Translations under genes and position numbers: made by a program
Notes under the pieces: generated by a model
The model's input: only the letters and a program-made list of their open reading frames with translations
Databases searched by the model: none
Told to the model about the DNA's origin: nothing
IMG/VR virus record: IMGVR_UViG_3300037311_000073
Location: 1 to 50,850 of that record
Reading direction: 5' to 3' (one strand)
Length of the DNA: 50,850 bases
DNA from: a virus
Taxonomy: Duplodnaviria > Caudoviricetes
Part shown: one piece after another, positions 3,431-50,850 of the stretch
Numbering within the stretch: the stretch's first letter is position 1
Layout: each line of letters opens with the position of its first letter

Positions 3431-3431
3431 C

Positions 3432-26300: not shown

Positions 26301-29300
26301 CGCCCGCCTGGCGAGGACGGCCGCGGGTGGGCCGTCAAGGTGCATGGTGTGGTCAAGGGGCAGGCCAGCGGCCAGTGGGTGCGCGTGGGCAAGCCGCAGG
26401 ACGCGCGCTGGCACTCCACCGAGCCGGAGGCTCGCAACTTCGCCAAGGGCCCGGTCGCACAGCTCACGCACGTGCCAGGCGAACTGGTTTCGTACACCGA
26501 GGGCCGTGTTGACGGCCGGCCGTTCCCGAACGCGCCAGACCGTGGTGTGAAGGCGGCTGAGCCGGTATCACAGCCAAAAGAGGAAGCATCTGCGACTTCC
26601 CAGGCGCTGGTATCACAGCCCAATCCGGCGCCAGCGCCGACCCCCGCCCCGGCGCCAGCGCCGACGCCCAGCGCCAACACCATCTTCACCGACGACGCTG
26701 CCGCCGCAGCCCGCGCCCGCTTGAAGGCCAAGCTCGGCCGCCTGAACAGCGGCATCGACCCCGAGATGCTGATGGACGGCATCACCCTGGCCGGCTACCA
26801 CATCGAGAAGGGCGCACGCACATTCGCGGGCTACGCGAAGGCGATGGTCGCCGATCTGGGCGATGCCGTGAAGCCGTACCTCCAGAGCTGGTACATGGCG
26901 GTTCGCAGCGACCCGCGCGCCGCGGAGTTCAGGGCCGGGATGGACAAGGCCAGCGCAGTCGAAGACATGACAGCGGCCGACATCGACGCCGTTCTGGAAG
27001 AAGCGCAGAATGCGGCTCAGGAGCCCGACGATGGAAATGCAGCGCGCCCACTGGATCGCCCAGGCCAACGAGCATTGGAAGGAGCACCAGCCGACCCGGT
27101 ACAAGCGCCTGACGCAGGCCGGGACGCTGGGCGCAGCCCTGAAGGAAGCAGCAGCGCAGACGGAGGCCGATCTGGAAGCGCTGAAGGGACAGGTGGACCC
27201 GATCGCGGCGTGGGAGATGGTGCGGGAGCGCCACCTGTTCCCGCCCGAGGAGAAAGGCGCAAGCCCCGAGGAGAGTCCAAGCCAAGGGCTGGCCGCAATG
27301 CGCGACCTGACGCAGACCCTGGGCTCTTTGGTGACGGAGCCGGACCCGATCCGCAAGAGCTGACCGCCCCCAACGTGGCGCCGCCGGCCCCGCCGGCCTT
27401 CACGCCCGTAGATTTCGAGATCGCCGACGACCTCGCGCTGGGCGAAGGTGGGCAAAAAGCCAAGTACCGCGGCAATGTCGAGGCCATCCGCCTCCTGCGC
27501 GACCTGGACGCCACCGGCCGCACCGCCACGCAGGCCGAGCAGCGAGTGCTGGCCCGTTACGTCGGCTGGGGTGGCATTGCCCAGGCTTTCGATGCCGGCA
27601 ACCGGGACTGGGCGCGTGAGCACGCTGAACTCAAGGAGTTGCTGACGCCCGAGGAGTGGGCAAAGGCCAACGAGAGCACTCAGTACGCGCACTACACCTC
27701 GCGCGAGGTCATCGGAGGCATCTACGAGGCCCTGGCCCGCATGGGTTTCACTGGCGGCAAGATCCTCGAGCCCGGCAGCGGGGTGGGGAACTTCGTGGGC
27801 CTGATGCCGGCCACTCTGCGCACGTCCAGCCGATTCACGGGCGTGGAGCGCGAAGCCATCGCTGTCGGCATCGCCAAGCACCTGTACCCGCAGCAGAACA
27901 TCCAGCGCGCGGACTTCACGGAGTTCATCGGAAACGATGGGTTCTTCGACCTGGCCATCGGCAACCCGCCTTTCGCGCGCAACCCGCTGACGGACAAGTC
28001 GGGCCGCAAGCACTTGACGGGCCTGTCGGTCCACAACTACTTCTTCGCCAAGGCCGTGGACATGCTGCGCGAGGGCGGCATCTTGGCGCAAGTGGTGTCC
28101 AACTCGTTCTTGGATGCCAAGCGCGACACCGCGCGCCGGTACATCGCCGATCGCACCGAGTTCCTGGGTGCCATCCGCCTGCCCAACAACGCCTTCGCCA
28201 AGAACGCGAACACCGAAGTCACGACCGACATCGTGTTCCTGCGCAAACTGCCCGAGAGCGAGTGGGGCAGCCGCAGCGGCAAAGAGAACCGCGATCGCTG
28301 GCTTGACACCCAGAACATCACCGACCCGAACGGCGGCGACGACATCCCGGTGAACCGCTACTTCGCGGAGAACCCAGAGATGATGCTGGGCCAGATGGGC
28401 CGCTTCGGCACCATGTACGGCCCCGGTCAACCCGCCCTGGTGGCCAAGCCGGGCCAGGACACGGCCGCGCTGCTGAAAGCCGCCATCGCGCGCCTGCCGG
28501 CGGACGTCTACATCGCTCGGGCCGTGGCCAACACCGCCGCCATGGGCGACGCTGCCATCGTGGCGCTGCGCGATCCAAAGGTGCAGGAGGGCGGCTACTA
28601 CGTGGAGGGCGGCAAGCTCTACCAGCGCCAGCAGGACATCGCAGGCGAGGCGCGTGCCGTCGAACTCACGCCGGACAGCCAGTGGACCGAGAAGACCAAG
28701 CTGGGCGAGGAAGGTTTCACGCGAATCAAGTTGCTGGCCGGGCTGCGGCAGACGCTGCGCGACCTGCTGGCCGCCGAACTGGCCGACGCCAAGGACATCG
28801 CGGCGCTGCGCAGTGGCTTGAACGAGGAGTACGACGCCTACGTCGCCAAGCACGGCCTCATCAACGACAAGCCAAGCGCCAGGGTGTTCGATGACGACCC
28901 CGACTACCCGCTGTTGGCGTCGCTGGAGCACGGATTCACGCCGGGCATCACGCTGGCGGCTGCGAAGAAGATGGGCGTCAAGCCGATGCCTGCCACGGCA
29001 AAGAAGGGTCCGATCTTCAGCGCGCGAGTGATCGAGAAGCGCACCGCACCCAGTCGCGCCGAAAGCCCGGCCGACGCGCTGAACATCAGCATGGCCGAGC
29101 GCGGCCGTATCGACGCCAGCTACATCGGCGAGCTGCTGGGACGCGATGGCGACGAGGCTCTGCGCGAGATGAGCCAAGGCGCGAAGCCGCTGCTGTTCAT
29201 GGACCCGGCCAGCAACGAGTACGTGCTGCGGGATGCCTATCTGTCGGGCAACGTGCGCGCGAAGCTCGCGCAGGCTCGCCAGGCCGGCATGATGAACAAC

Positions 29301-32300
29301 GCCCGTGCGCTGGAGGACGTGCAGCCGCCGGACGTGAGCGCGGGCGAAATCTCGGTTCGCGTGGGATCGCCATGGGTGCCTGCTTTCATCTACGAAGACT
29401 TCGCGCGCCACCTGTTCGGAGAAGGCACCAAAGCCACGTTCACTTACGTCAAGGCCAACTCGTCGTACATGGCGACGCTCCGGGCCGGCTCTGACGTGGC
29501 CGACTCCACGACGTGGGGGACGAAGGACTACCCCGGTACGCAGATCCTGACCTCGCTGATGAACAACCGCGAGATCAAGGTGATGTATCTCGACGAGAAC
29601 AAGAGCTTGAAGGTCCACCGCGAAGCCACCGAGGCCGCGAACCAGAAGGCCACCGAGGTCAAGCAGGCGTTCAGCGACTGGGCTTTCTCGGACGCCGACC
29701 GCGCCGACGTTCTGGCTCGCGCCTACAACGAGGCGAACAACAACTACGTGACGCGCGCCTTCGACGGCGGCTACATGCAGTTCCCGGGCAAGGTTCCCGA
29801 CGCGATCATCAAGTTCCGCCGCCACCAACGCAATGCCATCGCGCGCATCGTGCAGGACCGGACTGCGCTGCTGGACCACGTGGTCGGCGCCGGCAAGACG
29901 TTCACGGTGATCTCCGCAGCGATGGAACTCAAGCGCACGGGCCTGTCCAACAAGCCGCTGATCGTGGTCCCCAACCACTTGGTCAAGCAGTGGGCGGCTG
30001 ACTTCTATCGGCTGTACCCGGGCGCCAACATCTTGACCGCCACGAAGAAGGACTTCGAGAAGGTCAATCGCCGCCGGTTCCTGGCCAAGATCGCCACCGG
30101 CAACTGGGACGCCGTGATCATGGCGCACTCGTCGTTCGGCTTCGTCAAGCCGGCGTCGGAGTTCGAGGCGCAGTTCAACGAGAAGCAAGTCGAGAACGTC
30201 CTGGCGACCATCCAGGCCGTGGAGGATGGCGATGGCGACGCCATGGCCAAGAAGCGCACGGTCAAGCAACTGGCCGCGCTGAAGGAGCGCCTGGAGAACC
30301 GCATCGACGCGCTGCGCCAGAAGCCGATCGACGCGCTGTTGGACTTCAAGGAGATCGGCGTCGATCAACTGTTCGTGGACGAGGCGCACCTGTTCAAGAA
30401 CCTGATGTTCACGACCAAGATGCAGAACGTCAGGGGCCTGGGCGACTCGGCCGGCTCGCAGCGCGCCTACGACCTGTTCATCAAGGCCAACCAGCTCTAC
30501 GCGCAGAACGGCCGCGGCCAAGGCGTGGTGTTCGCCACGGGTACTCCGGTATCGAACTCGCTGGCCGAGATGTACCACATGATGCGGTACTTGATGCCGC
30601 AGGCGCTGCAAGACGGCGGGTTCGAGTCGTTCGACGCATGGGCCAACACCTTCGCCTCGGTCGAGCAGGTCTGGATGCAGAAGATTTCGGCGGACGGCTT
30701 CAAGGCCGACAACCGCATGAGCAACTTCGTGAACACCCACGAGCTGCTCAAGATGTTCGACCAGGTTGCGGACACCGTGACCATGGACGACATCAAGCGG
30801 GCCTACACCGACGAGAACAACGGCGCCGAGTTCCCGCTGCCCAAGCTGAAGAACGGCCGCCGGCAGCCGGTGTCGTTGGTCAAGAGCCCTGCGCAGGAAG
30901 CCTACATGGCCGACGTAGCGGCTCGCGCCGCGGCCATCGAAGGCAAGCGCACCAATGAGAAGGGCATGGACAACGCCCTGAAGATCATGGGCGACGCGCG
31001 CAAGGCCGCCATGGACATCCGGCTGGTGGACATGGAGCGCACCGAGCGGGAGAAGGGCGGTCGCATCGACCGCGCCGCCGAAGAGATCGAAGCGCGTTAC
31101 CGCCAGTACGCCGACGTGAAGGGCACGCAACTTGTCTTCTCCGACTTGGGCACTCCGATCAAGCACGCCAAGGCCGAGATGAAGGAGTGGGAGGCGCTCC
31201 AAGAACGCATCGGGAAGGCGGTGGACCCGGAGATCGTGACGGCCGCCAACTTGGGCAACGAAGCTGCCATGAAGGCGGTGGAGGACGCCGAGGACGCCCA
31301 GCGCGAGATGGACGAGAAGGGCGCCGACTGGCTGGATGCGGTCAAGGCCGCGCTGCGCGGCTTCTCGGTGTACGACGACCTCCGCACAGCGTTGGTGGAG
31401 CGAGGAATCCCCGAGTCGGAGATCGCGTTCATCCACGACTACAACACTGACGAGCAGAAACTGAGCCTGTTCCGCAAGGTCAACACAGGCGAGATCCGCG
31501 TGCTGATGGGCTCCACGCCGAAACTCGGCGCTGGCACCAACGTGCAAGAGCGCCTGGTGGCGCTGCATCACCTGGACGTGCCGTGGAAGCCCAGCGACGT
31601 TGAGCAGCGCGAGGGCCGCATCATCCGCCAGGGCAACATGCTGATGAACACGCTGCCCGGCTTCGAGGTGGAGATCCTGGCCTACGTGACGCAGGACACC
31701 CTGGACATGCGGATGTGGCAGGTCCAAGAGACGAAGCTGAAGATGATCAACCAGCTTCGCACGCGTCAGATCGGCCGTGAGATCGACAACGCCTTTGAGG
31801 ACATGGAGATGTCTGCGGGCGAGATGCAGGCCGCGGCCACCGGCAACATGGACCTGCTGAAAGAGATCCAGCTCCGAACCGACGTGAAGAAGTTGGAGCA
31901 GGCCAAGCGCAGCTACGACGCGCAACGCAACGACCTGGCATCGCGCAAGAAGCGGGCTGAGGAAGCTGTCGCCGCTCTCCCGAGAAAGATCGAGAAGGCC
32001 GAGCGGATGGCAGCCGCGTCAAAGGCGTACATCAACGAGCAGCAGGCCCCGGCTGCGGCTTTCAGGGTCGAGATCGACGGCACGACTTACACCGATGCCA
32101 AGAAGGCCGGTGCCGTGCTTCAAGCGGTCGTGGACGCCAAGCAGTACGTCAAGAAGGGCTCGGATCAAGTCCTGACGCCTGAGCAGTACCAGTCGCTGGC
32201 CGAAGAAGAACGCTCCGCCGGCAACGGTTGGACCGAGCGCCCGGTGCCGCTGAAACTGGTGATGGACGGAAAAACCTACACCGCGCGTGCGGCCCTGGGC

Positions 32301-35300
32301 GAAGCGTTTGCCGATCTGCGCGGCGATGCAGTGGACCCGCCGATGCTCAAGGTGGACGGGCAGACGTTCAACCGTCGCACCAAGGCGGCCGCAGCGATCG
32401 CGCAGCGCGTGGCCGACGCGATCGCGGAATCCCGGGCGGTTGAAGTGGGCAAGATCGGCCCGTTCGGTATCACTGTCGAGGGTCAGGGTACGAGCCGCTT
32501 CGACAAGGGCAGCTACGGCATCGAGGTGCTGATCGCTGCGCCCGATGGTGTAGAGGCCAGCACAACACTGAGCGTGAGGGCCATTGCCAGCGAAGACGAC
32601 GCCCGCAAGGCGGCAACGTCGGTCATCAACGCGGCCATCGGACTCGCCAGCGGCGGCGAGATGCAAGCGCGGTGGCTGCGTGAGGAGTTGACCAGCAAGA
32701 AGAAGGTGCTGGCCGACATCGCCGCGACCAAGCCGATGACCGAGTTTCCGCAGCAAGCCAAGCTGGAGCAGGCACGTGCTGCGCACCGCGAGGTTCTGGA
32801 GCGACTGACGGCAAAGGCCAAGGAAACGCCACCAGCGGATGCCGGAGATGCCGACGACGCAGCAGCGCTCAGCCGCGGCACTGGCGCGGTTGGCATGCCG
32901 TTGGAACAAGCCCAGGCCATCGCCGACCGGATTGCTGGTGCAGCAGGCTCCACGGTGCGGGTGCGCGTGGCACGGAACGTCGACGAACTCACAGGCCCAG
33001 CGGCTGCTGCCGTTCAGGCTTTGAGTCCACAAGGCCCGGTGCGTGGCGCGTACCTGCCGGGTCAGGACGAGGTGTGGCTGTTCGCCGACCACGTGTCGAG
33101 CGAGCCCGAAGCGATGTTCGTGGTGCTCCACGAGGCTTTTCACCGCGGGTTCTCGCGGACCGTGACTGGCGGCCGGGCGCTGCTGCAAGACCTGTGGCGA
33201 TCGAACCAGTCGTTGCGCCGGGCGGCGGCCGAGCAGATGCAGCAGCACAAGATCGGGCGCGACGAGGCCATCGAGGAAGCCTTGGCAGACATGGCTGGTC
33301 GCGGCGAGGCATCCACCCTGACCGGTTGGGCGAAGTTCGTGAACGCGGTGCGGGTTTGGCTGGCCAAGGTCGCTTCGGCCATCGGCGTGCCGATGACCTG
33401 GACGGACGACATGGTGCAGGCGTTTGTCGCGCAGACGGCGCGGCAGGGTCTGAGGGCAAAAGGCAGCGTGCTGGAGGCAAGCGGCACGTTCGATCTTGCG
33501 AACTCGGACATTCGCTTCAGTCGCGTGCCGGAGCGAGCGCTGCGCGATGCCGCGACGGGTGGCGCCAAGGCACTGTCGGACCTCAAGTTGGCTGCCGGCT
33601 ACCAGGTCGGCGACTTCTTCACGAGCCACGCCAAACTGTCGTTCTGGGACAAGACCGTCGGCACCCCGTTCAACCTTGCCAAGAGGTTCCCGGACACCTT
33701 CGGTCGGGTCTACGACGCCACGCAGCGTTTCCTCGAAGACGTAAGCGCGACGGCGAACGCCGCAGCGGACCTGGCCCCGCGGATCCTGCCCAAGCTCGAA
33801 CACCTGAAAGACATCTGGAAGAGCCCGCTGAAGCCCGAGGACGAGGCGGCGATCCGCAAACCCATCTTCGAGGGCACGCTGCTGTGGTTGCGCGGGCCGG
33901 ACGGGAAGCTGCAGAAGGCGGCGGACGCGAAGCGCGCGGCGCTGTCGTTGGACGCTGAAAGCAAGGCTCGGGCAATGCTGCGCGCCGGCAAGCTGGACGA
34001 GCGGGTGCTCAAGATGTGGCAGGGCCTGCCGCTGGACCGGTACGAAGCGATGGTGGAGTCGCGCTACGAGTCGCAGATGCTGCGCGCTGGCGTGGTGTTC
34101 ACCGATGCCGAGTTGAAGACCGTATTCAAGCTCACCGCCGACCAAGCCTCTCTCTACCGCGAGTTCCGCAAGGCTGCCGACAAGAGCCTGAACGACTTGG
34201 CGGTGAGCGAGATGATCCGACTCGGCGGTGCGCGCGTGAAGGGCTTGGCGGATGCTGTTCGAGGGCTCAGCGCTGTGGACGCATCGACCAAACTGCGAGA
34301 CGCGTTGTTCGAGCAGTCCGAGGCGGCCAGAGCCGAGGGCGAGAAGGTGCGCGGCGGGGACATCGACGACACGGCCGACCGGATCGTGCAGATCGGGAAC
34401 AAGGTCCGCGACTTGACCGCCAACGGGTACGCGCCGCTGATGCGCTTCGGCCACTACACGGTCGATGTTGTCGATGGCGACGAGCGTGTGTACTTTGGCA
34501 TGTTCGAGAGTCAGGCCGAGGCCAACCGGATGGCGCGGTCGATGCGCGGCAACTTCCCCGATGCCAAGGTCACCCAGGGCACGCAGTCGCAGGAGGCCTA
34601 CAAGCTGTTTGCGGGCGTCAACCCCGAGACGGTCGAGTTGTTCGGCGAGATCCTCGGTCTTGGCCAGGGCGGCGAGAAGCAGGATGCTGCGTTCCAGGAG
34701 TACCTGAAGCGTGCCCAGTCGAACCGCTCGGCGTTGACGCGCCTGATCCACCGCAAGGGCATCAAGGGCTTCGACGAGGAGGTCGGTCGCGTGCTGGCCG
34801 GCTTCATCACCTCGAACGCGCGGCGCACGTCCAGCAACTTGCACACAAAGGACATCCTCGAGGCCGTTGAGCAGATCCCCAAGGAGACCGGCGAGCTGAA
34901 GGACTACGCGGGGCGCATGGCCGAGTACACACGCAACCCCATTGAAGAGGCGCAGGCGTTTCGAGGTCTGCTGTTCGTGCAGTACCTGGGCGGGTCCATC
35001 GCTTCGGCGCTGGTCAACATGACACAGCCGATCACGGTGTCGTTCCCCTTCCTGAGCCAGTTCGGCGGGGCGGGGCGCGCGGCCAAGGCGCTTACCAAGG
35101 CGTATGCCGACATGGCCGGTGGGCGCAATTTCGAGGCTGGTCTCGACGAGGCGCTACGTGCAGCCGAGGACGGCGGCATCGTGGCGCCGCAGGAGCTGTT
35201 CCAGTTGCTGGCCCAGGCGCAGGGCAAGGGGCAGTTGAGAACCGGCGACGGAACCGTCGGTGGCGACGCTGCTGCCGCCGTCCAGAACGCCAAGGCACGG

Positions 35301-36443
35301 GCTCTTCTGGTGTGGGGCAAGATGTTCAGCTTTGCCGAGCTGATCAACCGAAAAGCGACCTTCATCGCCGCCTATCGGATGGCGCAGGCTCGCGGCGAAG
35401 CGGACCCGGCAGCGTTCGCGGCCGACGCGGTCAAGGAAACGCAGTTCACCTACAACAAGGGCAACCGCCCCGAGTGGGCGCGCGGCGCGATCGGCGCAAC
35501 CCTGTTCACGTTCAAGACCTACAGCGTCAGCTACGTCGAGCTGTTGGCCCGGCAGTGGCGCCTGGGCGGCCCGGATGGGCGAAAGGCCATGCTGCTGGGG
35601 ATCGCCACTCTGGCGCTGGTGGCCGGCATGGACGGTCTGCCGTTCATGGAAGATGTCGAGGACGTGATCGACGGCTTCATGCAGCGAGTCATGGGCCGGA
35701 ACTTCGCCACCAGACAGGCCCGAAACGAGTTCCTGTCTTCAGTCATGGGAGAAGACCTTGCTCGGTTCGTTGCCAAGGGCGTTTCCGGGCTGCCAGGTGC
35801 TCCGCTGGACGTGTCCGGTCGCCTCGGCCTGGGCAACTTGATCCCAGGGACCGGGCTGCTGCGGAAAGACGCGAGCGCAGCGAACAGCCTGAAGGAGCTC
35901 GCGGGCCCGGCAGGCGACTTCATCCAGCGCGGCTTCAACGCGACCGGCATGGCTCTACAGGGCGACATCGGCAAGGCCGTGGTCGAGATCTCTCCGGTGG
36001 CTGCGCGCAACGTCGTCAAGGCGGCGGACATGGTCGAGACCGGCATGTACCGCGACACGTCTGGGAAGAAGATCATCGACACCTCGAGCGCAGAGGCGCT
36101 GCTGAAGGGCATCGGCTTCCAGCCGAACTCGGTGGCTCGCGTTCAAGCCGCGTCCAACGACGTGCGGCGGATGGTCGAGCTGAACAAGCGCACCGAGGCC
36201 GAGATTGCCGACCAGTGGGCCCTGGGCATCTTCGAGGGCGATACTGCGAAGGTGGCCGAAGCGATCAAGCGCCGAAACCAGTGGAACGAGGACAACCCGA
36301 AGACCCCGATCCGGATCGAGATGAGCCAAGTGCTGCGGCGTGTCCGTCAAATGCGTATGACCAAAGCCGAGCGCATGGCCAAGACCGCACCCAAGGAGAT
36401 TCGAGAGGCTGCTCGGCGTGAACTCGAAGGGGTTGCGCGATGA
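23394..36443 (+). CDS. Giant DarB-like polyvalent protein: inorganic-pyrophosphatase-like + adenine MTase + SNF2/SF2 helicase + HExxH peptidase-like + PLxRFG domains
   Basis: IENPAGSVRRG..HYGYIKG..GADKDHVDVF (~25350-25480), ILEPGSGVGNF (~27760), IGNPPF (~27960), LDHVVGAGKT (~29870), DEAH (~30380), EQREGRIIRQGN (~31600), HEAFH (~33130), YAPLMRFG (~34430). Confidence 0.92.
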   Translation: MPTLTDLRATMPELAGLDDQHAVKLIHQLYYPQQDPARIAGLLGVKPAAPPKPERSLLRASADVGLSALRGVGTGVRMLTDVAGADNVASGALRSVDDYLRSLQSATANANEAEVARLLKEAEGQGVLDQVVAGAKAFAVDPVSMLANAVGTAVPTLAAGAVGAAARVGAVGAAAASGGVGAAQGVGAVKGSIYDTVKQELRAAGASEQEAEDRAVRAQEYSSANAGQIAVGGALGALAGSTGAERIVASMRGAAGTGPARGALARMATGAVTEAVPEALQAGQEKFATNTALNNEGFQVSPMSGVAANMTVEGLAGAGVGGSFGLANRSAGDAIRATKLPESGAVSKALNAGTEEAAQVADAEEAAVVQAHAQTRRQQAAPMAAALGRLGDADRTEALNALAVADNMQAPPAVRRRAQNRLDVLMALAETPAAAADVAPEAPDAESLVAPASVPETDVAAAAEPSQPTEAQAPPITGQPRPQYPDPLPGERVYSSMDVAMRVKARSGEGAELVRVVGGLAVRKTDHKTGEVTIPASTAEPAELPGVEPAPPAPADPPALPDDTLNRAGNPFTHRGAAANRMRELGDGWTTAKVQGGFAVRRLSAVSAPVDASAQQAATSPTNDLFEPTDGQKKAGNYKLGHHRVSGLDLSIENPAGSVRRGTDRDGKAWENTLQHHYGYIKGSRGADKDHVDVFVKPGTADEWAGTVFVVDQVHPDTGKFDEHKALIGFDTIDEAKAAYAANYAKGWKGLKAISAMPANEFRTWALSDAPARGPLVKKQPTLMDKMTEEAGGPLTFGDIKRMNAEADLEPPAAAPVTQPPVKAETVATPVATAPTAPPANDADSGAAEREAVSSWASAPAEQRQQWLLEAGWKKGSPGLAAMEDKPWTGMTPSQRSRVRAAIEASEKRRVESWGKPQRHPAAEPEPKPRKVPVPVQRAAAEREAKRAAYFTSGNVVEGYGGFDEVLEYRPPGEDGRGWAVKVHGVVKGQASGQWVRVGKPQDARWHSTEPEARNFAKGPVAQLTHVPGELVSYTEGRVDGRPFPNAPDRGVKAAEPVSQPKEEASATSQALVSQPNPAPAPTPAPAPAPTPSANTIFTDDAAAAARARLKAKLGRLNSGIDPEMLMDGITLAGYHIEKGARTFAGYAKAMVADLGDAVKPYLQSWYMAVRSDPRAAEFRAGMDKASAVEDMTAADIDAVLEEAQNAAQEPDDGNAARPLDRPGQRALEGAPADPVQAPDAGRDAGRSPEGSSSADGGRSGSAEGTGGPDRGVGDGAGAPPVPARGERRKPRGESKPRAGRNARPDADPGLFGDGAGPDPQELTAPNVAPPAPPAFTPVDFEIADDLALGEGGQKAKYRGNVEAIRLLRDLDATGRTATQAEQRVLARYVGWGGIAQAFDAGNRDWAREHAELKELLTPEEWAKANESTQYAHYTSREVIGGIYEALARMGFTGGKILEPGSGVGNFVGLMPATLRTSSRFTGVEREAIAVGIAKHLYPQQNIQRADFTEFIGNDGFFDLAIGNPPFARNPLTDKSGRKHLTGLSVHNYFFAKAVDMLREGGILAQVVSNSFLDAKRDTARRYIADRTEFLGAIRLPNNAFAKNANTEVTTDIVFLRKLPESEWGSRSGKENRDRWLDTQNITDPNGGDDIPVNRYFAENPEMMLGQMGRFGTMYGPGQPALVAKPGQDTAALLKAAIARLPADVYIARAVANTAAMGDAAIVALRDPKVQEGGYYVEGGKLYQRQQDIAGEARAVELTPDSQWTEKTKLGEEGFTRIKLLAGLRQTLRDLLAAELADAKDIAALRSGLNEEYDAYVAKHGLINDKPSARVFDDDPDYPLLASLEHGFTPGITLAAAKKMGVKPMPATAKKGPIFSARVIEKRTAPSRAESPADALNISMAERGRIDASYIGELLGRDGDEALREMSQGAKPLLFMDPASNEYVLRDAYLSGNVRAKLAQARQAGMMNNARALEDVQPPDVSAGEISVRVGSPWVPAFIYEDFARHLFGEGTKATFTYVKANSSYMATLRAGSDVADSTTWGTKDYPGTQILTSLMNNREIKVMYLDENKSLKVHREATEAANQKATEVKQAFSDWAFSDADRADVLARAYNEANNNYVTRAFDGGYMQFPGKVPDAIIKFRRHQRNAIARIVQDRTALLDHVVGAGKTFTVISAAMELKRTGLSNKPLIVVPNHLVKQWAADFYRLYPGANILTATKKDFEKVNRRRFLAKIATGNWDAVIMAHSSFGFVKPASEFEAQFNEKQVENVLATIQAVEDGDGDAMAKKRTVKQLAALKERLENRIDALRQKPIDALLDFKEIGVDQLFVDEAHLFKNLMFTTKMQNVRGLGDSAGSQRAYDLFIKANQLYAQNGRGQGVVFATGTPVSNSLAEMYHMMRYLMPQALQDGGFESFDAWANTFASVEQVWMQKISADGFKADNRMSNFVNTHELLKMFDQVADTVTMDDIKRAYTDENNGAEFPLPKLKNGRRQPVSLVKSPAQEAYMADVAARAAAIEGKRTNEKGMDNALKIMGDARKAAMDIRLVDMERTEREKGGRIDRAAEEIEARYRQYADVKGTQLVFSDLGTPIKHAKAEMKEWEALQERIGKAVDPEIVTAANLGNEAAMKAVEDAEDAQREMDEKGADWLDAVKAALRGFSVYDDLRTALVERGIPESEIAFIHDYNTDEQKLSLFRKVNTGEIRVLMGSTPKLGAGTNVQERLVALHHLDVPWKPSDVEQREGRIIRQGNMLMNTLPGFEVEILAYVTQDTLDMRMWQVQETKLKMINQLRTRQIGREIDNAFEDMEMSAGEMQAAATGNMDLLKEIQLRTDVKKLEQAKRSYDAQRNDLASRKKRAEEAVAALPRKIEKAERMAAASKAYINEQQAPAAAFRVEIDGTTYTDAKKAGAVLQAVVDAKQYVKKGSDQVLTPEQYQSLAEEERSAGNGWTERPVPLKLVMDGKTYTARAALGEAFADLRGDAVDPPMLKVDGQTFNRRTKAAAAIAQRVADAIAESRAVEVGKIGPFGITVEGQGTSRFDKGSYGIEVLIAAPDGVEASTTLSVRAIASEDDARKAATSVINAAIGLASGGEMQARWLREELTSKKKVLADIAATKPMTEFPQQAKLEQARAAHREVLERLTAKAKETPPADAGDADDAAALSRGTGAVGMPLEQAQAIADRIAGAAGSTVRVRVARNVDELTGPAAAAVQALSPQGPVRGAYLPGQDEVWLFADHVSSEPEAMFVVLHEAFHRGFSRTVTGGRALLQDLWRSNQSLRRAAAEQMQQHKIGRDEAIEEALADMAGRGEASTLTGWAKFVNAVRVWLAKVASAIGVPMTWTDDMVQAFVAQTARQGLRAKGSVLEASGTFDLANSDIRFSRVPERALRDAATGGAKALSDLKLAAGYQVGDFFTSHAKLSFWDKTVGTPFNLAKRFPDTFGRVYDATQRFLEDVSATANAAADLAPRILPKLEHLKDIWKSPLKPEDEAAIRKPIFEGTLLWLRGPDGKLQKAADAKRAALSLDAESKARAMLRAGKLDERVLKMWQGLPLDRYEAMVESRYESQMLRAGVVFTDAELKTVFKLTADQASLYREFRKAADKSLNDLAVSEMIRLGGARVKGLADAVRGLSAVDASTKLRDALFEQSEAARAEGEKVRGGDIDDTADRIVQIGNKVRDLTANGYAPLMRFGHYTVDVVDGDERVYFGMFESQAEANRMARSMRGNFPDAKVTQGTQSQEAYKLFAGVNPETVELFGEILGLGQGGEKQDAAFQEYLKRAQSNRSALTRLIHRKGIKGFDEEVGRVLAGFITSNARRTSSNLHTKDILEAVEQIPKETGELKDYAGRMAEYTRNPIEEAQAFRGLLFVQYLGGSIASALVNMTQPITVSFPFLSQFGGAGRAAKALTKAYADMAGGRNFEAGLDEALRAAEDGGIVAPQELFQLLAQAQGKGQLRTGDGTVGGDAAAAVQNAKARALLVWGKMFSFAELINRKATFIAAYRMAQARGEADPAAFAADAVKETQFTYNKGNRPEWARGAIGATLFTFKTYSVSYVELLARQWRLGGPDGRKAMLLGIATLALVAGMDGLPFMEDVEDVIDGFMQRVMGRNFATRQARNEFLSSVMGEDLARFVAKGVSGLPGAPLDVSGRLGLGNLIPGTGLLRKDASAANSLKELAGPAGDFIQRGFNATGMALQGDIGKAVVEISPVAARNVVKAADMVETGMYRDTSGKKIIDTSSAEALLKGIGFQPNSVARVQAASNDVRRMVELNKRTEAEIADQWALGIFEGDTAKVAEAIKRRNQWNEDNPKTPIRIEMSQVLRRVRQMRMTKAERMAKTAPKEIREAARRELEGVAR
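27031..27363 (+). CDS. Overprinted TnpV-like protein nested in the +1 frame of the giant gene
   Basis: AGGAG RBS at 27019-27023, 7 nt before ATG; HWKEHQPTRYKRL..G.L...AWEMVRERHLFPPEE resembles TnpV-like proteins; the main frame here is low-complexity G/R/P/A linker. Confidence 0.65.
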   Translation: MEMQRAHWIAQANEHWKEHQPTRYKRLTQAGTLGAALKEAAAQTEADLEALKGQVDPIAAWEMVRERHLFPPEEKGASPEESPSQGLAAMRDLTQTLGSLVTEPDPIRKS

Positions 36444-41639: not shown

Positions 41640-41933
41640 TCAGAAGGTCACGGGCTGCTTGACAGCGCGTTCCAGGCACATGAGGCCCTTCTGCAGATCG
41701 GTGCGGCCCTCGCCGAGCCAGCGGCCCGGGCTGGTGACGATGGAGTGCGGCGCGTGGCCGGCCAGCAGCGGCTCGGCGTCGCGGTTGATCACGAACCGCT
41801 CCACCCGGTTGACCAAGTTCCGCAGTTCCGCACCCACCGTTTCGATCTCGTGAAGCAGGGCGCCTTCGGTCTCTCCGTGGGTGGTGTACTGGGGAAGGTT
41901 GGTGGCTCGTTCGATGGCTTGAGATTCGGTCAC
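41640..41933 (-). CDS. acb2: Acb2-family anti-CBASS nucleotide-sponge homologue (divergent)
   Basis: C-terminal PGRWLGEGRTDLQKGLMCLERAVKQPVTF matches the recalled Acb2 [29 protein letters not shown]; similar size. Confidence 0.8.
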   Translation of the reverse strand: MTESQAIERATNLPQYTTHGETEGALLHEIETVGAELRNLVNRVERFVINRDAEPLLAGHAPHSIVTSPGRWLGEGRTDLQKGLMCLERAVKQPVTF

Positions 41934-45358: not shown

Positions 45359-45586
45359 TCAGGCCGCGCGGGCGCTCATGTAGGCGGCGCGATCCACGAC
45401 TTCGACGCAGGCGGGTCGCGCTGCGTCCTTGTCCTTGACCCCGGCGTTCAAGCGCTGCGCGTCGGACTGCCGGGCGGCGAGGAAGCGCTCCACGTCCCAG
45501 ACCCGGTGCAGCTGGACGTTGGATCGGCCGTTGGTGTCGGTGTGGCGCAGGTACAGGTCGCGCCCGACCAGGGTGGCGGCGCTCAT
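45359..45586 (-). CDS. Hypothetical protein (75 aa)
   Basis: ATGA-coupled to recT; YLRHTDTNGRSNVQLHRVWD. Confidence 0.65.
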   Translation of the reverse strand: MSAATLVGRDLYLRHTDTNGRSNVQLHRVWDVERFLAARQSDAQRLNAGVKDKDAARPACVEVVDRAAYMSARAA

Positions 45587-46881
45587 TCGATGGTCCCTTG
45601 CACGGGCGTGGAGCCACCACGGCGCGCGGCGGGCACGCTGGTGCGTGCCGAGCTGGCGGCCGAGGCGGCAGCGGCCTGCGGGCTCGCTCCGCCCGCGGGC
45701 GTTGGGTTGGCGAGTTCGGCAGACCGGCGCTCGTAGTCGGCGCTGATCAAGCTGGCCACCTCGGGCGGTTGGCCGCGCGCTTCGTCCACCAGCGCGTCCA
45801 GCGTGTCCTGATCGCGGCAGGCGGCGATGCGCTCGCGGAGTGCCTGGAGATCGAAGGCCGGGAGTTCGCGCGCCGATGCGTTGGCCGGCTGTGCGCCCGA
45901 GTGGGCAACCGTCTGCACCATCCCGACAGACTCGACGGCGCGTGCCGTGCTGCCGAAGGCTTCGCCGAACTCCGCGGCGGGCTCGCCGCTCTCGTCGTCG
46001 ATCGCAGGAACGTCCGACAGACCGCCCACCAGCTCCCGGACCGCATCAGGATCGGCCAGCGTCTTCAGGTCGATTCGACCGGCGCCGGTGTCGCTGCGGT
46101 TGTCCAGTTCGGCCGCCACCGCCAGGGCGTCGCCGCTCCCGATCGGCAGGATCTTGGCGTGCTTCTTCGTGGCGGACTTGGCGGCCATGTCGTCCTCCCA
46201 CATGACCCACGGCTGCTCGTCGAACTTGCGCTGCGCCTTGTCGCGTTCCTTCGCATCCTGGGTCGTGGAGATGGCAGCCAGCAGGGATCGGTACGTTTCG
46301 CTCTTGCCGCGGATCTTGTGGACTTCGGACAAGGGCAGCACGCATGCGCTCTCGCCGCCGCTGACCAGGTGAGCATGGGAGAAGGCCCCGATCAGATCGC
46401 CGCGGGCCTCCAGGTTGATCGAGTGGCGCAGGAACGTCTCGCTGCCATCCATGTGTTCCCAGCGGTCGCCCTTGTGGATCGCGCCGTGCGTGAGCGACTT
46501 GATGTAGGGCGACCGGTAGGCGAGCGTGATGAACCCGCGCGCGCCGATCTGGAACTGGCAGTCGTACAGGTCGGTCCACTTGCCCTGGACCATGGCGCGG
46601 CGCTTGTAGGGGATCAGGAACGCCTGCTGCAGAACCGTGTTCGGCTCCAGGCCCAGCGCGGCCGAGGTCATCATCGCCCCCAGCACCGTTTGCGGATTGC
46701 ACTCCGCGAGCTTCGGTGCGCGCTTGACCGCGTTGACGCACAGCCGAAGCATGCGGTCGGGTTCCAGAAACTTGGTGGCGACCGCGGAAATGCCGTCGGC
46801 CACGCGCTTGTCGCTGAGGTAGTCGAAGATGGTCTTCGTGCGCTGGCCTGTGGCCACGGCGCGCAGGGCTTGCGAACTCAT
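45583..46881 (-). CDS. recT: RecT-family single-strand annealing protein
   Basis: PKLAECNPQTVLGAMMTSAALGLEPN, AFLIPY, CQFQIGARGFITLAYRS, PW..WEDDMAAKS. Confidence 0.92.
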   Translation of the reverse strand: MSSQALRAVATGQRTKTIFDYLSDKRVADGISAVATKFLEPDRMLRLCVNAVKRAPKLAECNPQTVLGAMMTSAALGLEPNTVLQQAFLIPYKRRAMVQGKWTDLYDCQFQIGARGFITLAYRSPYIKSLTHGAIHKGDRWEHMDGSETFLRHSINLEARGDLIGAFSHAHLVSGGESACVLPLSEVHKIRGKSETYRSLLAAISTTQDAKERDKAQRKFDEQPWVMWEDDMAAKSATKKHAKILPIGSGDALAVAAELDNRSDTGAGRIDLKTLADPDAVRELVGGLSDVPAIDDESGEPAAEFGEAFGSTARAVESVGMVQTVAHSGAQPANASARELPAFDLQALRERIAACRDQDTLDALVDEARGQPPEVASLISADYERRSAELANPTPAGGASPQAAAASAASSARTSVPAARRGGSTPVQGTIE

Positions 46882-47903
46882 CGGATGGCTCCCTTCTTGG
46901 GCTTGCTGCTGGGCAGGCGCATCACGCGGATGGCCTTCGTGCGTTTGAACTGGGCGAACAGTTCGGGGTGCTCGGCCTCGAATGCGCCTTGGTCGAAGCG
47001 CGTGTCGGACTGGGCTTTCCAGGTGAGCAGGTCGCGGCCTTGATAGGTCAGCCGAGCGTGCGGGCTGATGAAGTCGGCCAGCTCGAACTGAAGGGCCTCA
47101 AGCGAGGTCTCCCAGTCCTTGATCTGGGCCTTGATCTGCCGGTACTGGCCGGCCTTCTCCGCAATCTCATCCGTGGCCTCGACCGACTGCCCGTTGTCCA
47201 GCGGGAACAGGGCCTTGATGTCGTTGAAGTCGAAGAGGTCGGGCTGCTGGCCGCCGACGATGCATTCGTCCCAGAAGCGGATCACCTTGGCCTGCATCGC
47301 GGCGATGGTTTCGTCGTCGCGGACGGTCCAGTAGATGTCCACGTCGTCGAAGCTGCGCAGCGCAGCCACGAGGCAGTAGCGGCGGCCGGTGAGACCCAGG
47401 CCCCAGGCGAACTGCGCGGCGTACTCGATGGGCACGTCCTCGGTGTGCTGTTCGCCCCACTTCAGCCGGGCGAAGCCACTCACGCTCTTGGCATCGGCGT
47501 TGATGTGCTCGCGGTCGAAGGTGACGATCTCGTCGTTGATCAGCACCTCGCCGGTGACGATCAGCTCGAAGTCGATCTCGCAGGTCATCCACGGGTGAGC
47601 GGCACCGTAGTAGCGCGAGTTGCACGACACCAGTTCGACCTTCAGGCCCTCGTCTTCGAGCCGCTGCACCGCCATCTCGCGGATGAACGGCTCCAGCTTC
47701 GTGCCTCGAGCGAACCGGCGCTGCTGCCACTTGTCGGGGACCGGCGCCGGCTTGCGGCCGGTGCGGATCTGCCAGAACTCCAGCGGGGTCAGGTAGGGGC
47801 TGAGGCCGAGGATGGCTGCAACGTCGCTGCCGCCGACGTGGGCGCTGCGGTCATGGGCTTGGTCGCTGGGTGCGAGCAGGCCGTGGGCGATGGGTGCGTT
47901 CAC
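46878..47903 (-). CDS. YqaJ viral recombinase / lambda-exonuclease family protein
   Basis: VGGSDVAAILGLSPYLTPLEFW, GTKLEP, DAKS, WGE..TEDVPIEYAAQ; adjacent to recT. Confidence 0.92.
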   Translation of the reverse strand: MNAPIAHGLLAPSDQAHDRSAHVGGSDVAAILGLSPYLTPLEFWQIRTGRKPAPVPDKWQQRRFARGTKLEPFIREMAVQRLEDEGLKVELVSCNSRYYGAAHPWMTCEIDFELIVTGEVLINDEIVTFDREHINADAKSVSGFARLKWGEQHTEDVPIEYAAQFAWGLGLTGRRYCLVAALRSFDDVDIYWTVRDDETIAAMQAKVIRFWDECIVGGQQPDLFDFNDIKALFPLDNGQSVEATDEIAEKAGQYRQIKAQIKDWETSLEALQFELADFISPHARLTYQGRDLLTWKAQSDTRFDQGAFEAEHPELFAQFKRTKAIRVMRLPSSKPKKGAIR

Positions 47904-47931
47904 TGGGATCTTTGGATGTGTGCCTGGCGGA

Positions 47932-48114
47932 TCAGCCGAGGCAGGAGGCGATGGCAGCGGCCGCAGTAGCGACCACCACCCACGGCAGGACAGCCAAGGC
48001 CACGACGCGCAAGGCTTCGGAGTCCACAAGCGGTTCAGTCGGGCGCTTGCGCTGCTCGCGAGCGCTGGGCAGGGTGCTCGGACCTGCGTCGTCTCCGTCG
48101 TGGCGGTGCGTCAT
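47932..48114 (-). CDS. Small protein with C-terminal hydrophobic segment
   Basis: ATGA-coupled; 60 aa. Confidence 0.55.
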   Translation of the reverse strand: MTHRHDGDDAGPSTLPSAREQRKRPTEPLVDSEALRVVALAVLPWVVVATAAAAIASCLG

Positions 48115-48344
48115 CGGACTTGCCCCCACAGCACTGCGCGCTTGACTCTGTACGTCGCCAACTGAGTCCTGAACTCGCGCAGCGAAAGGCTCTCCTGCAA
48201 GCCGTCGCTGGCTGCTTGCTGAAGGTACGTCTCTGTCTCCCAGATGACGTAGCTCAAGAAGGCAATGCGCATACGCAGCGCGGCGTTGATCATCAGCCGT
48301 CGAGGGCCAGCGACAACGCTCCTTGCAAGACCGTGCGTGTTCAT
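48111..48344 (-). CDS. Hypothetical protein, first gene of leftward operon
   Basis: 77 aa from ATG 48344, just downstream of the predicted promoter. Confidence 0.55.
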   Translation of the reverse strand: MNTHGLARSVVAGPRRLMINAALRMRIAFLSYVIWETETYLQQAASDGLQESLSLREFRTQLATYRVKRAVLWGQVR

Positions 48345-48382
48345 GGTGGTCGTTTGTCGTTCGTGTTTCGCGCTTGATCCGG

Positions 48383-48412
48383 AGGCTAACATGGTGCTAG
48401 ACTCAACGTCAA
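48383..48412 (-). promoter_or_regulatory. Leftward sigma70-type promoter with overlapping operator-like dyad
   Basis: Minus strand TTGACG-18 nt-TAGCCT with TGn extension; imperfect dyad CTAACATGGTGCTAG at 48386-48400. Confidence 0.55.
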
Positions 48413-48459
48413 GCGTGGCGAGTGGTGTTGCGCTATCGCAAACCCTAGGAGTCCTTGGA

Positions 48460-48864
48460 ATGACGCTTGAACCGCACCAACAGCTCGTGGTGGAAGAGAA
48501 GAACAACGTCAGCGAGCGGCTGGCGAAACTGTTGGGCTTCTTTCAGGGGCCGCTTTTCCCAACATTGGACGAGGCCGAGCGCGCTCGCCTGCGCAACCAG
48601 GCGCGCTTCATGGACGGCTACGCGGCAGTCTTGGAGGAGCGCATTGCCGCGTTTAGGGTGCGCGCCGACGAAACCGGCGAAATACAGCACCTCCGCGCGT
48701 CAGTGGCCGAGGCCCGCGACACTTTCCAGAAATACGCCGAGCTGCACCGCGCGAAGGGCACGCCGGAGGGCAACGCCAAGGCCGCGGCCAACGCCGAGCT
48801 GGCGGCGCGGATGGACGCTGCCCTGCGGCACAACGCCAGGTTAAGCGGGAGACAACGGCCGTGA
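48460..48864 (+). CDS. crAss001_48-like domain protein with C-terminal extension that reads into attC1
   Basis: AGGAG RBS; PHQQLVVEEK..ERLAKL..F..LDEAERARLRNQARFMDGYAAVLEERIAAF; stop lies inside attC1. Confidence 0.8.
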   Translation: MTLEPHQQLVVEEKNNVSERLAKLLGFFQGPLFPTLDEAERARLRNQARFMDGYAAVLEERIAAFRVRADETGEIQHLRASVAEARDTFQKYAELHRAKGTPEGNAKAAANAELAARMDAALRHNARLSGRQRP

Positions 48865-48928
48865 CGCTGCCGACGAAGCGCACAGGTGCGGATAGCCGTT
48901 GGCTCTCCGCTTCAACCGACAGTTATGC
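48828..48928 (-). repeat. attC site 1 (101 bp)
   Basis: Minus strand GCATAAC-5 nt-GTT(G)AAGCGG(A)GAG...CTCCCGCTTAAC-5 nt-GTTGTGC. Confidence 0.85.
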
Positions 48929-48950
48929 AGCAACACAAAGGAGCCTGCAA

Positions 48951-49583
48951 GTGAGCGAGTACCACAAGATTCAGAGCATCTACAAGCGCGACATGACCAG
49001 CAAGCGCAAGACGCTGATTGAAGGCGAATGGACGCTGCCCGAGTTTGAATACCTGGCCGGCAACGTGTGGGTCTTCACCGAGAAGGTGGACGGCACGAAC
49101 ATTCGCGTGATCTTCAAGGACGGCGGCATCACGTTCGGCGGGCGCACCGAGGACGCGCAGATTCCCGCGCAACTGGTGGGCCGCCTGAACGAGCGATTCT
49201 TGCCGCTGGCCGCGAAGCTGGGCGAGGTGTTCCCGGACGGTGCGGCGGTACTGTACGGCGAGGGCTACGGCGCCAAGATTCAGAAGGGCGGCGGCAACTA
49301 CCGCGCCGACCAAGACTTCGTGTTGTTCGACGTGCGCGTGGGCCAGTGGTGGCTGCAGCGCGCCGACGTGGGCGACGTGGCACAGAAGCTGGGCCTTGAC
49401 GCGGTGCCCGTGATTGGCGAGGGCACGCTGCACGATGCTGTGGCCTGGGCCAAGCGTGGCATCCGCTCGACCTGGGGCGACTTCGAGGCCGAGGGCATCG
49501 TTGCGAGGCCGAAGACCGAGCTGATGACGCGCAGCGGGCACCGACTGGTGGCCAAGATCAAGTGCCGCGACTTTGCTGCATAA
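48951..49583 (+). CDS. RNA ligase (Rnl2-like nucleotidyltransferase domain only, 210 aa)
   Basis: Motif I TEKVDGTN, III LYGEGYG, IIIa FVLFDV, IV EGIVARP, V AKIK; AAGGAG RBS before GTG 48951. Confidence 0.9.
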   Translation: MSEYHKIQSIYKRDMTSKRKTLIEGEWTLPEFEYLAGNVWVFTEKVDGTNIRVIFKDGGITFGGRTEDAQIPAQLVGRLNERFLPLAAKLGEVFPDGAAVLYGEGYGAKIQKGGGNYRADQDFVLFDVRVGQWWLQRADVGDVAQKLGLDAVPVIGEGTLHDAVAWAKRGIRSTWGDFEAEGIVARPKTELMTRSGHRLVAKIKCRDFAA

Positions 49584-49664
49584 CGTCGGCGTTAACCGGC
49601 GCGCGTGATGAAAGACCCGGAGCGCGGCGCTATGTCGCGCGTCCGGTTGAACAACCAGTTCGGC
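49578..49664 (-). repeat. attC site 2 (87 bp)
   Basis: Minus strand GCCGAAC-5 nt-GTT(C)AACCGG(A)CGCGCG...CGCGCGCCGGTTAAC-6 nt-GTTATGC. Confidence 0.9.
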
Positions 49665-49692
49665 CTCTGGTGCCGGAGCGGAAGGAACTACG

Positions 49693-49836
49693 ATGGAACA
49701 GGTACTGCTGAAACTTGCTGAGAGCGCCGCTGCTGGCGGATGGCCCGCTGCTTTTGCGATTGCCGTGGTGGCGCTTGCGTGCATGGGTGCGGTGTTCGCG
49801 GTGTGCTGGTTTTGGGTTGCGCTGGTGCGCAGCTAG
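49693..49836 (+). CDS. 47-aa membrane peptide cassette gene (absent from ORF track)
   Basis: GAAGGA RBS; MEQVLLKLAESAAAGGWPAAFAIAVVALACMGAVFAVCWFWVALVRS; fills the space between attC2 and attC3. Confidence 0.7.
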   Translation: MEQVLLKLAESAAAGGWPAAFAIAVVALACMGAVFAVCWFWVALVRS

Positions 49837-49838
49837 AG

Positions 49839-49897
49839 GCCGAACGTTGCGGTTGAGCGCGCGGCCGAAGGCCGTCCGCTCGAACCGCTTGTTCGGC
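49839..49897 (-). repeat. attC site 3 (59 bp)
   Basis: Minus strand GCCGAAC-5 nt-GTT(C)GAGCGGACGGCC-TTC-GGCCGCGCGCTCAAC-6 nt-GTTCGGC; classic 59-base-element length. Confidence 0.9.
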
Positions 49898-49913
49898 CCC
49901 TGCGCACGAAAGG

Positions 49914-50738
49914 ATGAGAGTGAAAGACGACCTCGGCGACCGCATGAAGCTGTACGAAGGAATGGAAGCTGGCCGACGCCTGATGCCACTGCTGCCGGCT
50001 CTGGGCCGCATAGATGGCCGGACCTTCCACAGTTTCACGCGCGGCATGGACCGGCCGTTCGACGCGGCGTTCTCGGCCTGCATGGTGGACACAACTGCTG
50101 CCCTGGTGCGCGACACCGGGGCCTGCATGGGCTACACGCAGAGCGACGAAATCACGCTGGCCTGGCACAGCCGCACGACGCAGAGCCAGATTTGGTTCGA
50201 TGGCCGCGTGGCGAAGATGACAAGCCAGCTTGCGGCCCAGGCCACGCTGATTTTCTACCGCTTTGTGCTGGAGCGCATGCCGCAGTACGCGAACCGGCTG
50301 CCGACCTTCGATGCCCGCGTGTGGAACGTGCCGAACCGCGCCGAGGGTGCGAACGTTTTTCTGTGGCGCGAGTGGGACGCCACCAAGAACAGCGTGAGCA
50401 TGGCCGCTTCGGCGTACTACGGCCACAAGGCCCTGATGGGCAAGAACAGCCCGCAGAAGCACGACATGCTGCACGCCAAGGGCGTGAACTGGAACGACTA
50501 CCCAGCGCTTTTCAAGCGCGGCGCCTACGTGCAACGGCGCACCGTGAGTGTGCCGTTCAGCGCAAAAGAACTGGACCGCCTGCCGCCCAAGCACGAAGCG
50601 CGCACGAACCCGGCGCTTGTAGTGGAGCGCAGCGTGTGCAGCGTGTTGGACATGCCGCCGCTGGGTGCGGTGACGAACCGCGAGGCTGTCATCTTTGATG
50701 GCGCGCCGCCAATGTTGGCCGAGGGGCCGAACGCTTGA
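49914..50738 (+). CDS. thg1: Thg1-like protein (tRNA-His guanylyltransferase family 3'-5' polymerase); GTG 49920 is an alternative start
   Basis: LGDRMKLYE, RIDGRTFHSFT, YTQSDEI, FDGRVAK, FDAR, WREWDATKNS, GVNWNDYP..FKRG. Confidence 0.93.
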   Translation: MRVKDDLGDRMKLYEGMEAGRRLMPLLPALGRIDGRTFHSFTRGMDRPFDAAFSACMVDTTAALVRDTGACMGYTQSDEITLAWHSRTTQSQIWFDGRVAKMTSQLAAQATLIFYRFVLERMPQYANRLPTFDARVWNVPNRAEGANVFLWREWDATKNSVSMAASAYYGHKALMGKNSPQKHDMLHAKGVNWNDYPALFKRGAYVQRRTVSVPFSAKELDRLPPKHEARTNPALVVERSVCSVLDMPPLGAVTNREAVIFDGAPPMLAEGPNA

Positions 50739-50789
50739 GCTAAGGGGCTGGCCCGCCAGGGCCAGTCCCGCTTGAGCGAAGTGTTAGAC
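50726..50789 (-). repeat. attC site 4 (64 bp)
   Basis: Minus strand GTCTAAC-5 nt-GCT(C)AAG(C)GGG(A)CTGGCCC-TGGC-GGGCCAGCCCCTTAGC-6 nt-GTTCGGC. Confidence 0.9.
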
Positions 50790-50812
50790 AGCATCTTGGT
50801 GGAGAACTGACC

Positions 50813-50850
50813 ATGCCGATAAAGCCAGAGAACAAAGCCCGCTACCCGAA
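50813..50850 (+). CDS. 5' fragment of next cassette gene (MPIKPENKARYP), probably a phage HNH-like protein
   Basis: GGAG RBS; N-terminus resembles 'MPIRPENKARYP' phage proteins; only 12 codons visible. Confidence 0.55.
   Translation, partial: MPIKPENKARYP

Follow-up and report, generated by a model that had tools for sequence, protein, structure and literature searches.

The right-hand end of the tailed-phage record IMGVR_UViG_3300037311_000073 (Duplodnaviria; Caudoviricetes; 50,850 bp, the whole of which is called the window here) bears an integron-type cassette array, at 48828 to 50850, in which the genes run backward relative to their own attC sites. The array is real, partly worn, and reversed in gene polarity. 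The reading we favor, and hold to be reasonably probable on the sequences at hand, is that of a phage-borne array with its genes on the recombinogenic strand, likely served by an integron integrase (IntI) from outside and likely transcribed from a phage promoter at its left end. It is carried by attC anatomy, polarity, unit boundaries, changed neighbors, and the presence of the same kind of cassette in host integrons, whereas recombination by IntI and transcription of the array are predicted. Integrons have been studied as bacterial collectors of resistance and anti-phage genes, with attC polarity keeping the genes facing the cassette promoter (Pc). Because units of the array turn up beside other neighbors, both in other phages and in bacterial integrons, gene swapping through the integron system is likely among phages. 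If so, the reversal, a separate phage IntI, and the cassettes that cross over would make the integron a gene-exchange channel for both sides of the phage-host conflict. Clusters of attC sites in phages are already published; no description of systematic cassette inversion or of a phage IntI family was found in the open-access PMC and bioRxiv literature.

Four imperfect palindromes punctuate the array: site 1 (48828 to 48928, 101 bp), site 2 (49578 to 49664, 87 bp), site 3 (49839 to 49897, 59 bp), and site 4 (50726 to 50789, 64 bp), each with its top strand on the minus strand. Read on that strand, all four have the layout R'', 5 nt, L'' (8 nt with an unpaired fourth base), variable terminal structure, L' (7 nt), 5 or 6 nt, and R'. 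The features that define attC sites (AAC and GTT boxes, spacers, L boxes, a variable hairpin, and a length of 57 to 141 bp) are thus present in 4 of 4, and the palindromes and full attC anatomy that an earlier note had described from the letters alone are indeed there. A strict pattern scan of both strands recovered the four minus-strand sites plus one weak match elsewhere. In a scored scan, sites 1 to 4 reached 27, 29, 29, and 23, while twelve 50,850-nt Markov-shuffled windows yielded 9 matches at 23 to 25 and none at 26 or above; site 4 alone is within chance by this measure because its score was also reached in shuffled sequence. A covariance model was built from 39 of 42 listed attC sites adjoining bacterial intI genes, with no phage sites used. 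Run on both strands, it matched exactly these four sites, on the minus strand only, at 25.3, 28.5, 37.6, and 49.2 bits for sites 1 to 4 (rough E values of 1e-10 to 2e-4); its next-best match scored 10.9 bits, and the best plus-strand match at a site scored 9.2 bits. Neither the scored scan nor the covariance model found a further attC site elsewhere in the window.

As described by Nivina et al. (2016; PMC5027507), the bottom attC strand displays extrahelical bases, usually a G and a conserved T six bp apart, opposite the AAC arm. In the array these bases fall on the plus strand, that is, on the bottom, recombinogenic strand, in agreement with the host-trained model, and the proposal that the recombinogenic strand is the mRNA-like strand holds. 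The canonical G and T, six bases apart, are found in sites 2 and 3. The earlier note had assigned them to sites 2 and 4, which is correct for site 2 but not for site 4, where G and T are seven bases apart. Site 1 has the T at its canonical place and a C where the G is expected; the related copies of site 1 in loci L080 and L082, both upstream of a ligase gene, have the G. With the pfold concept for the recombinogenic fold (PMC5371416) and a constraint set of our own, pfold was 0.57 for site 1, 0.86 for site 3, and 0.18 for site 4. Across larger samples, it exceeded 0.1 in 77% of 221 viral sites versus 76% of 189 host sites, and the extrahelical G was kept in 203 of the 221 viral sites by a score that itself favors G.

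All recognizable genes of the array lie on the plus strand and start after their own attC, antisense to the usual cassette orientation, as the earlier note had it; this follows from open reading frame (ORF) and family calls together with the minus-only matches of the host-trained model. Predicted cassette A (48834 to 49583, plus strand) consists of site 1 at the 5' end and a 210-aa RNA ligase gene (48951 to 49583, plus; PF09414) whose stop codon is the TAA of the following site's R' box; its boundaries are shared with L080 and with contigs of other runs. Cassette B (49584 to 49844, plus), predicted from the ORF scan, joins site 2 to a 47-aa hydrophobic ORF (49693 to 49836) with no known family and no relative among the fetched loci. 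Cassette C (49845 to 50731, plus), whose predicted boundaries recur in other contigs, joins site 3 to a Thg1-like gene (PF04446) that starts at 49914 or 49920 and stops at 50738, the stop being provided by site 4. Cassette D (50732 to 50850, plus) comprises site 4 and an HNH endonuclease gene (ATG at 50813) that is broken by the contig end after 12 codons; it is 87% identical over 83 nt to a complete HNH cassette in L200, which belongs to another phage's array. To the left of these, a crAss001_48-domain gene (48460 to 48864, plus) has its last codons and stop inside site 1. GTTGCGC at 48427 to 48433, 26 nt ahead of its ATG, has 6 of the 7 bases of the expected R'' box, and this gene is possibly the body of a cassette that has lost its own attC. 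On the mRNA-like strand, each hairpin immediately precedes a ribosome-binding site and stands 16 to 28 nt from the start codon. These units differ from the classical cassette, whose promoterless ORF reads on the top strand and ends at the cassette's own attC.

The R boxes flanking each gene are perfect complements (7/7 bases in 3/3 cassettes), compared with 6, 5, 7, and 5 of 7 bases for the two R boxes within sites 1 to 4; across viral arrays, neighboring R boxes match in 133 of 168 cases versus 57 of 168 for a site's own boxes. Such complementarity between neighbors is the mark of former circular cassettes and, unlike the breakpoints described below, says nothing of polarity. Complementary core sites and a mobile unit with a predicted crossover between G and TT, by which an integron cassette is defined, are all seen at the level of sequence. 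The next site's AAC box contains or abuts the end of 70 of 127 non-redundant viral cassette ORFs, and the many inverted genes that end at or in that box offer a testable route to the first formation of cassettes.

The inversion extends well beyond this phage. Viral contigs were drawn by an attC DNA pattern blind to ORFs (68 loci, with 2 overlapping loci dropped) and set beside 40 regions adjoining bacterial intI genes. The 168 viral inter-site segments divided into 131 inverted, 10 normal, and 27 unsure; a single provirus record, which has a host-type intI at one end, contributed all 10 of the normal class. Of 153 host segments, 88 were normal, 13 inverted, 46 unsure, and 6 without an ORF, and the 13 inverted calls (ORFs of 36 to 98 aa) look like miscalls for the most part. 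Two of the host arrays (L263 and L271) contain many near-copies of a 320- to 430-bp cassette common to both genomes. A Pfam match was obtained for 12 of 118 inverted ORFs of at least 60 aa: six N6/N4 methyltransferases, Mom, an Acb2/Tad1 hairpin, Vut_1, HTH_17, Phage_gp49_66, and AAA_33.

Phage arrays of this general kind were reported by Qi et al. (2023; PMC9892861) as 17 clusters of attC sites lacking integron integrases, and of 6 phage sites that the authors tested, 5 underwent IntI1 recombination with attI1, with the bottom strand preferred. As in the window, several attC sites lie between small genes and the phage has no intI; orphan methyltransferases are common cargo. The main text of that paper gives the typical cassette orientation and does not use the words "opposite," "reverse," or "antisense," whereas the window's array is inverted. 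By our scan, the array of phage TJE1, which was among those tested, is normal, and that of MW202573, which was not, is inverted, a feature unremarked in the paper's text: four covariance-model matches lie on the minus strand among plus-strand genes (MW202573.1, L399:2069-3738). The model found no match in phage PH101 of the same study. In the GenBank virus Rctr41k (KX853513.1, L401:6417-9877), an IntI-like gene precedes long attC-like sites, which have a 7-nt spacer and ambiguous polarity.

L080 shares 48832 to 49585 (site 1 and the ligase gene) at 90% identity, and its left neighbor and next site differ from those of the window, while L001 and L002 diverge from the window sequence past 50734. 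Among the matches listed, a 914-nt contig of another run spans 49838 to 50734, which is cassette C; of the contigs of other runs, one begins at 48832 and two finish at 49583; and run X1 has a contig whose start, 50730, falls at the AAC of site 4, with a depth of 76 versus 16. The earlier suggestion of a shuffling platform is borne out to the extent that gene order is not invariant, the ligase cassette having other neighbors in other phages. A second contig of run X1 (27,269 nt) is identical to the window over 46000 to 50759; this run may be the source sample, in which case the identity checks the assembly rather than recurrence.

A breakpoint survey of 119 loci with sites yielded 38 shared stretches that start or finish close to a site. 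Where the 3' end lay at a site in both partners, R' was the stopping point for 18 of 19 stretches and none continued into the next site, although 12 of these 18 are pairs of ligase cassettes and so are not independent. Where the 5' end lay at a site in both partners (n = 16), 6 ends fell inside the upstream site, 4 at R', 4 at R'', and 2 nearby, so that 10 of 16 extended into or through the upstream site. In two loci (L083:5990-6000 and L086:1620-1650), the ligase gene is left with the R'' box and a few bases of spacer; this deletion of the hairpin would immobilize the gene. The notion that each ORF keeps one attC over the long term was rejected, since the inner part of attC is mostly unrelated even at 85 to 90% ORF identity. 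Occasional top-strand exchange at R'' or homologous recombination could, we infer, re-pair gene bodies with hairpins.

Relatives of the ligase occur in 16 bacterial genome loci, three of which (L134, L137, and L138) have a scored attC beside the gene in inverted polarity. In L137 (91 to 2558), the inverted ligase cassette is second from an intI that adjoins recG; in L134 (636 to 5697), it adjoins cassettes whose longest ORFs read normally. These sequences indicate that host integrons have taken up an inverted cassette, and its place inside them favors IntI as the agent. L134 also has, past the next site, another phage-like ORF on the plus strand. Between phage and host arrays, no gene body was found in opposite polarity, all 41 of 41 matches being same-strand; there is thus no evidence that inverted cassettes are flipped host cassettes.

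The integrase itself is absent from the contig. The IntI profile (TIGR02249) had no match in the 50,850 bp, and the sole tyrosine recombinase found is a P4-type phage integrase (36835 to 38046, plus; family match) lying between the virion and early genes, as the earlier note had recognized. No exact match to the attI-like motif of phage IntI loci was found in the contig either. There are thus four attC sites in 2 kb without a TIGR02249 match, in an array that runs off the end of an 82%-complete record. Such absence is common: in 50 array-bearing viral records, an IntI above the cut-off was present twice (one, of host type, at the end of a provirus) and a truncated IntI once, and 7 of 8 array-bearing records at least 90% complete had none. 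IntI was present in 91 of 201 genomes of one plausible host family. The truncated IntI (G223, L178:6358-6939) is of host type, covers the first 116 model positions only, lies at the downstream end of an inverted array, and is perhaps a separate phage capture of intI.

Other phages do encode an integron integrase. The G002 phage, a temperate phage of 54.9 kb that is 100% complete, has 14 attC sites, its own IntI, and an inverted ligase cassette 89% identical to that of the window, its integron lying at C1:47645-54913 and 1-3600 (L150, L152, L153, and L089). Its intI stands directly upstream of the phage integrase gene; array, intI, and int all point one way, and an attI-like crossover lies about 45 bp ahead of intI. 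G224 is laid out likewise. Its IntI and that of G002 are 73% identical, form one branch (100/100), and share no more than 58% identity with the closest of 33 host IntIs. A wider search gave 48 viral IntI loci (L300 to L347), 41 of them with long matches; of these 41, 27 had sites upstream of intI and none had sites downstream. In all 82 of the 82 upstream sites the top strand was opposite to intI, and 49 cassettes were inverted, 1 normal, and 5 unsure. A candidate phage attI, a conserved motif, lies just before the intI start codon and is composed of an R box, then AATTCGACCGC, a 7-nt loop, and GCGGCGTAACAC; this attI-like motif precedes intI in 21 of the 41 viral loci, and a loose version is present at some position in 5 of 30 host intI loci, so that it may not be specific.

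From these observations a mechanism can be proposed. IntI, supplied in trans by the host or by a co-infecting phage, would cut the folded plus strand between AA and C and excise a circle, which would reinsert at another attC or at attI, and cassettes would be expressed by read-through from the left end. In phages that encode IntI, the operon order is array, attI, intI, and int, with intI at the far end and in the direction of the early operon. The canonical intI-attI-attC geometry within such an operon would set the attC top strand against transcription, so that only backward-coded cassettes would be expressed and kept, and phages without IntI would draw on this backward-coded pool. The RNA ligase and Thg1-like cargo might repair RNA cut by host defenses; a role against tRNA-cutting defenses is plausible by analogy with RNA repair in phage T4 and from the family names. 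Where genes point away from the replication origin, the coding strand is the lagging-strand template. Bottom attC strands are described as folding and being excised best on the lagging-strand template (PMC5371416), and placing the plus strand there is a possible second benefit of inversion. A wider proposal is more tentative, and we regard it as doubtful: temperate phages would have their own integron branch, with a phage IntI family, its own attI, and a pool of backward cassettes derived from phage early genes, including counter-defense genes; IntI would create them by joining attC to a TAAC-like gene end, and phages without IntI as well as host chromosomal integrons would have access to the pool. 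Were it true, the system with which bacteria amass anti-phage genes would be arming phages as well, and a phage operon would be a place to watch cassettes originate.

Known systems match the window in part. Sedentary chromosomal integrons, here the family of the Rhodoferax metagenome-assembled genome G007, resemble it in attC family, fold statistics, and R-box complementarity. They differ in that their genes lie on the top strand with attC at the 3' end, whereas in the window's array attC stands 5' of each gene and the genes read on the bottom strand, and in having intI, attI, and attC, whereas no intI, attI, or Pc was found in the window contig, the last two being expected past its end, and its cargo is phage early genes. 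IntI can place cassettes opposite to the promoter by top-strand recombination (Nivina et al. 2016; PMC5027507), and cassettes are reported to insert outside integrons at attG sites (GWT; bioRxiv 2022.09.11.507474). By analogy, either could be the route by which a first attC entered a phage operon, but in both, as described in these sources, gene and attC turn together, whereas in the window the gene is turned against its own attC. The reversed-intI integrons of the Spirochaetota type (bioRxiv 2022.02.06.479319) resemble those of the G002 and G224 phages in that intI and cassette genes are co-directional; compared by description only, it is intI that is described as reversed in Spirochaetota, whereas in the phage integrons the intI-attC geometry is canonical and the genes are reversed.

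Several points weigh against an array still exchanged by an outside IntI and read from the left. The attI and intI would fall past the broken right end, and a host IntI is assumed. No rightward promoter for the array was found by a consensus scan. Site 2 is rarely in the recombinogenic fold (pfold of 1e-4, same constraint set), and this poor folding, together with the loss of the G in site 1, suggests decay. Four of the 16 5' ends stop at R'', and the inner part of attC is usually unshared on either side at 85 to 90% ORF identity, so that strict bottom-strand exchange is not the whole explanation. The 3' breakpoints coincide with ORF ends, where homology fades anyway. Orientation was called with an ORF scorer of our own, and the pattern that drew the viral sample was modeled on the window's sites; the normally oriented TJE1 array means that inversion is not universal in phages. 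Finally, the search of host genomes gave a capsid match (46% identical) in 1 of 401 genomes, from which no host was assigned.

Much of this evidence also bears on four other explanations. The array might be the promoter-proximal part of a complete phage integron with attI and a phage intI past 50850, which we think unlikely though not far-fetched: the polarity puts attI to the right, the G002 phage with its closely related ligase cassette has its IntI downstream of the array, and the 82%-complete contig is broken inside a cassette. Set against these are the absence of IntI and of the attI-like motif from the contig, the scarcity of IntI among array-bearing viral records (2 of 50), and the place of the phage integrase gene, which intI directly precedes in G002 and G224 but which here lies 11 kb off, on the other side. 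It is less probable still, though it accounts for the signs of wear, that the cassettes were made by IntI in the past and that the block arrived ready-made, being altered now only by RecT-type or slippage recombination between hairpin arms. The phage encodes RecT (45583 to 46881, minus; family match) and YqaJ; ORF bodies are re-paired with other attC inner parts; the ligase hairpin is deleted to within a few bases of R'' in L083 and L086; sites 1 and 2 show decay; and 4 of 5 capsid relatives lack attC. An inert block would not readily explain why perfect neighbor complementarity persists at three junctions, why folding is no worse in viral sites, which still keep the extrahelical G, than in host sites, or why the AAC of site 4 is the exact point of a contig branch in run X1.

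The two remaining explanations we consider very improbable. One holds that the hairpins are RNA elements of an early transcript (terminators, processing signals, or translational elements) that resemble attC by chance. Their place in the mRNA-like strand, immediately before the ribosome-binding sites, would suit such elements, and the hairpins may have a secondary RNA role alongside that of attC; however, none was called a terminator or matched Rfam, and R-box complementarity across sites, breakpoints at AAC, and uptake by host integrons are not predicted. The other, equally remote, is that a chromosomal integron of the host makes up the right end, attached to the phage as a prophage flank or by misassembly, as a linear, incomplete contig would allow; array and RecT operon also diverge without an intervening repressor gene, unlike the arrangement in L106 and L114. 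The 27,269-nt contig of run X1 speaks against this (possibly from the same reads), as do an integrase gene that lies mid-contig, leaving the right end no prophage boundary, a GC content of 63 to 65% in the array bins versus 61 to 73% over the window, phage-type cargo, and the mostly normal orientation of host arrays. The array is best taken, as in the earlier note, to be phage-borne.

The remainder of the contig is that of a tailed phage. The record is linear and 82% complete by CheckV, with about 18% of the genome missing. Family searches identified a small terminase, a P22-like portal, a capsid, and the mid-contig integrase, together with a leftward early operon of AlpA, RecT, and YqaJ (Pfam-type matches), from which the array diverges. 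A weak leftward promoter-like element (48383 to 48412, minus; TTGACG, 18 nt, TAGCCT), seen by eye and below the promoter-scan threshold, falls in the short gap separating this recombination operon from the array. No repressor or cro gene was found in the divergent junction (48345 to 48460), where the relatives L106 and L114 differ, and no replication genes were recognized in the contig by family search. The window had no tRNA gene, no Rfam match anywhere, and no terminal repeat, and its joined ends give no open frame; among the sequencing runs listed as containing this sequence, none was of RNA. A terminator scan made three terminator-like calls, none at any of the four attC sites, and a generic repeat search found nothing beyond a weak repeat, in two copies, between sites 2 and 3. 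Nine GenBank phage records had short matches to cargo or YqaJ genes, none spanning the array, and of five capsid relatives, one had attC sites and none a match to the window's RecT. Elsewhere, an ISL3 transposase fragment occupies positions 1 to 126 at the left contig end, ahead of the small terminase. A 4,349-aa protein (23394 to 36443) combines inorganic pyrophosphatase, Eco57I methylase, and SNF2 helicase domains and resembles DarB-like anti-restriction proteins. A small early-operon gene (41640 to 41933) gave a weak match to the Acb2/Tad1 hairpin family (24.1 bits, cut-off 27).

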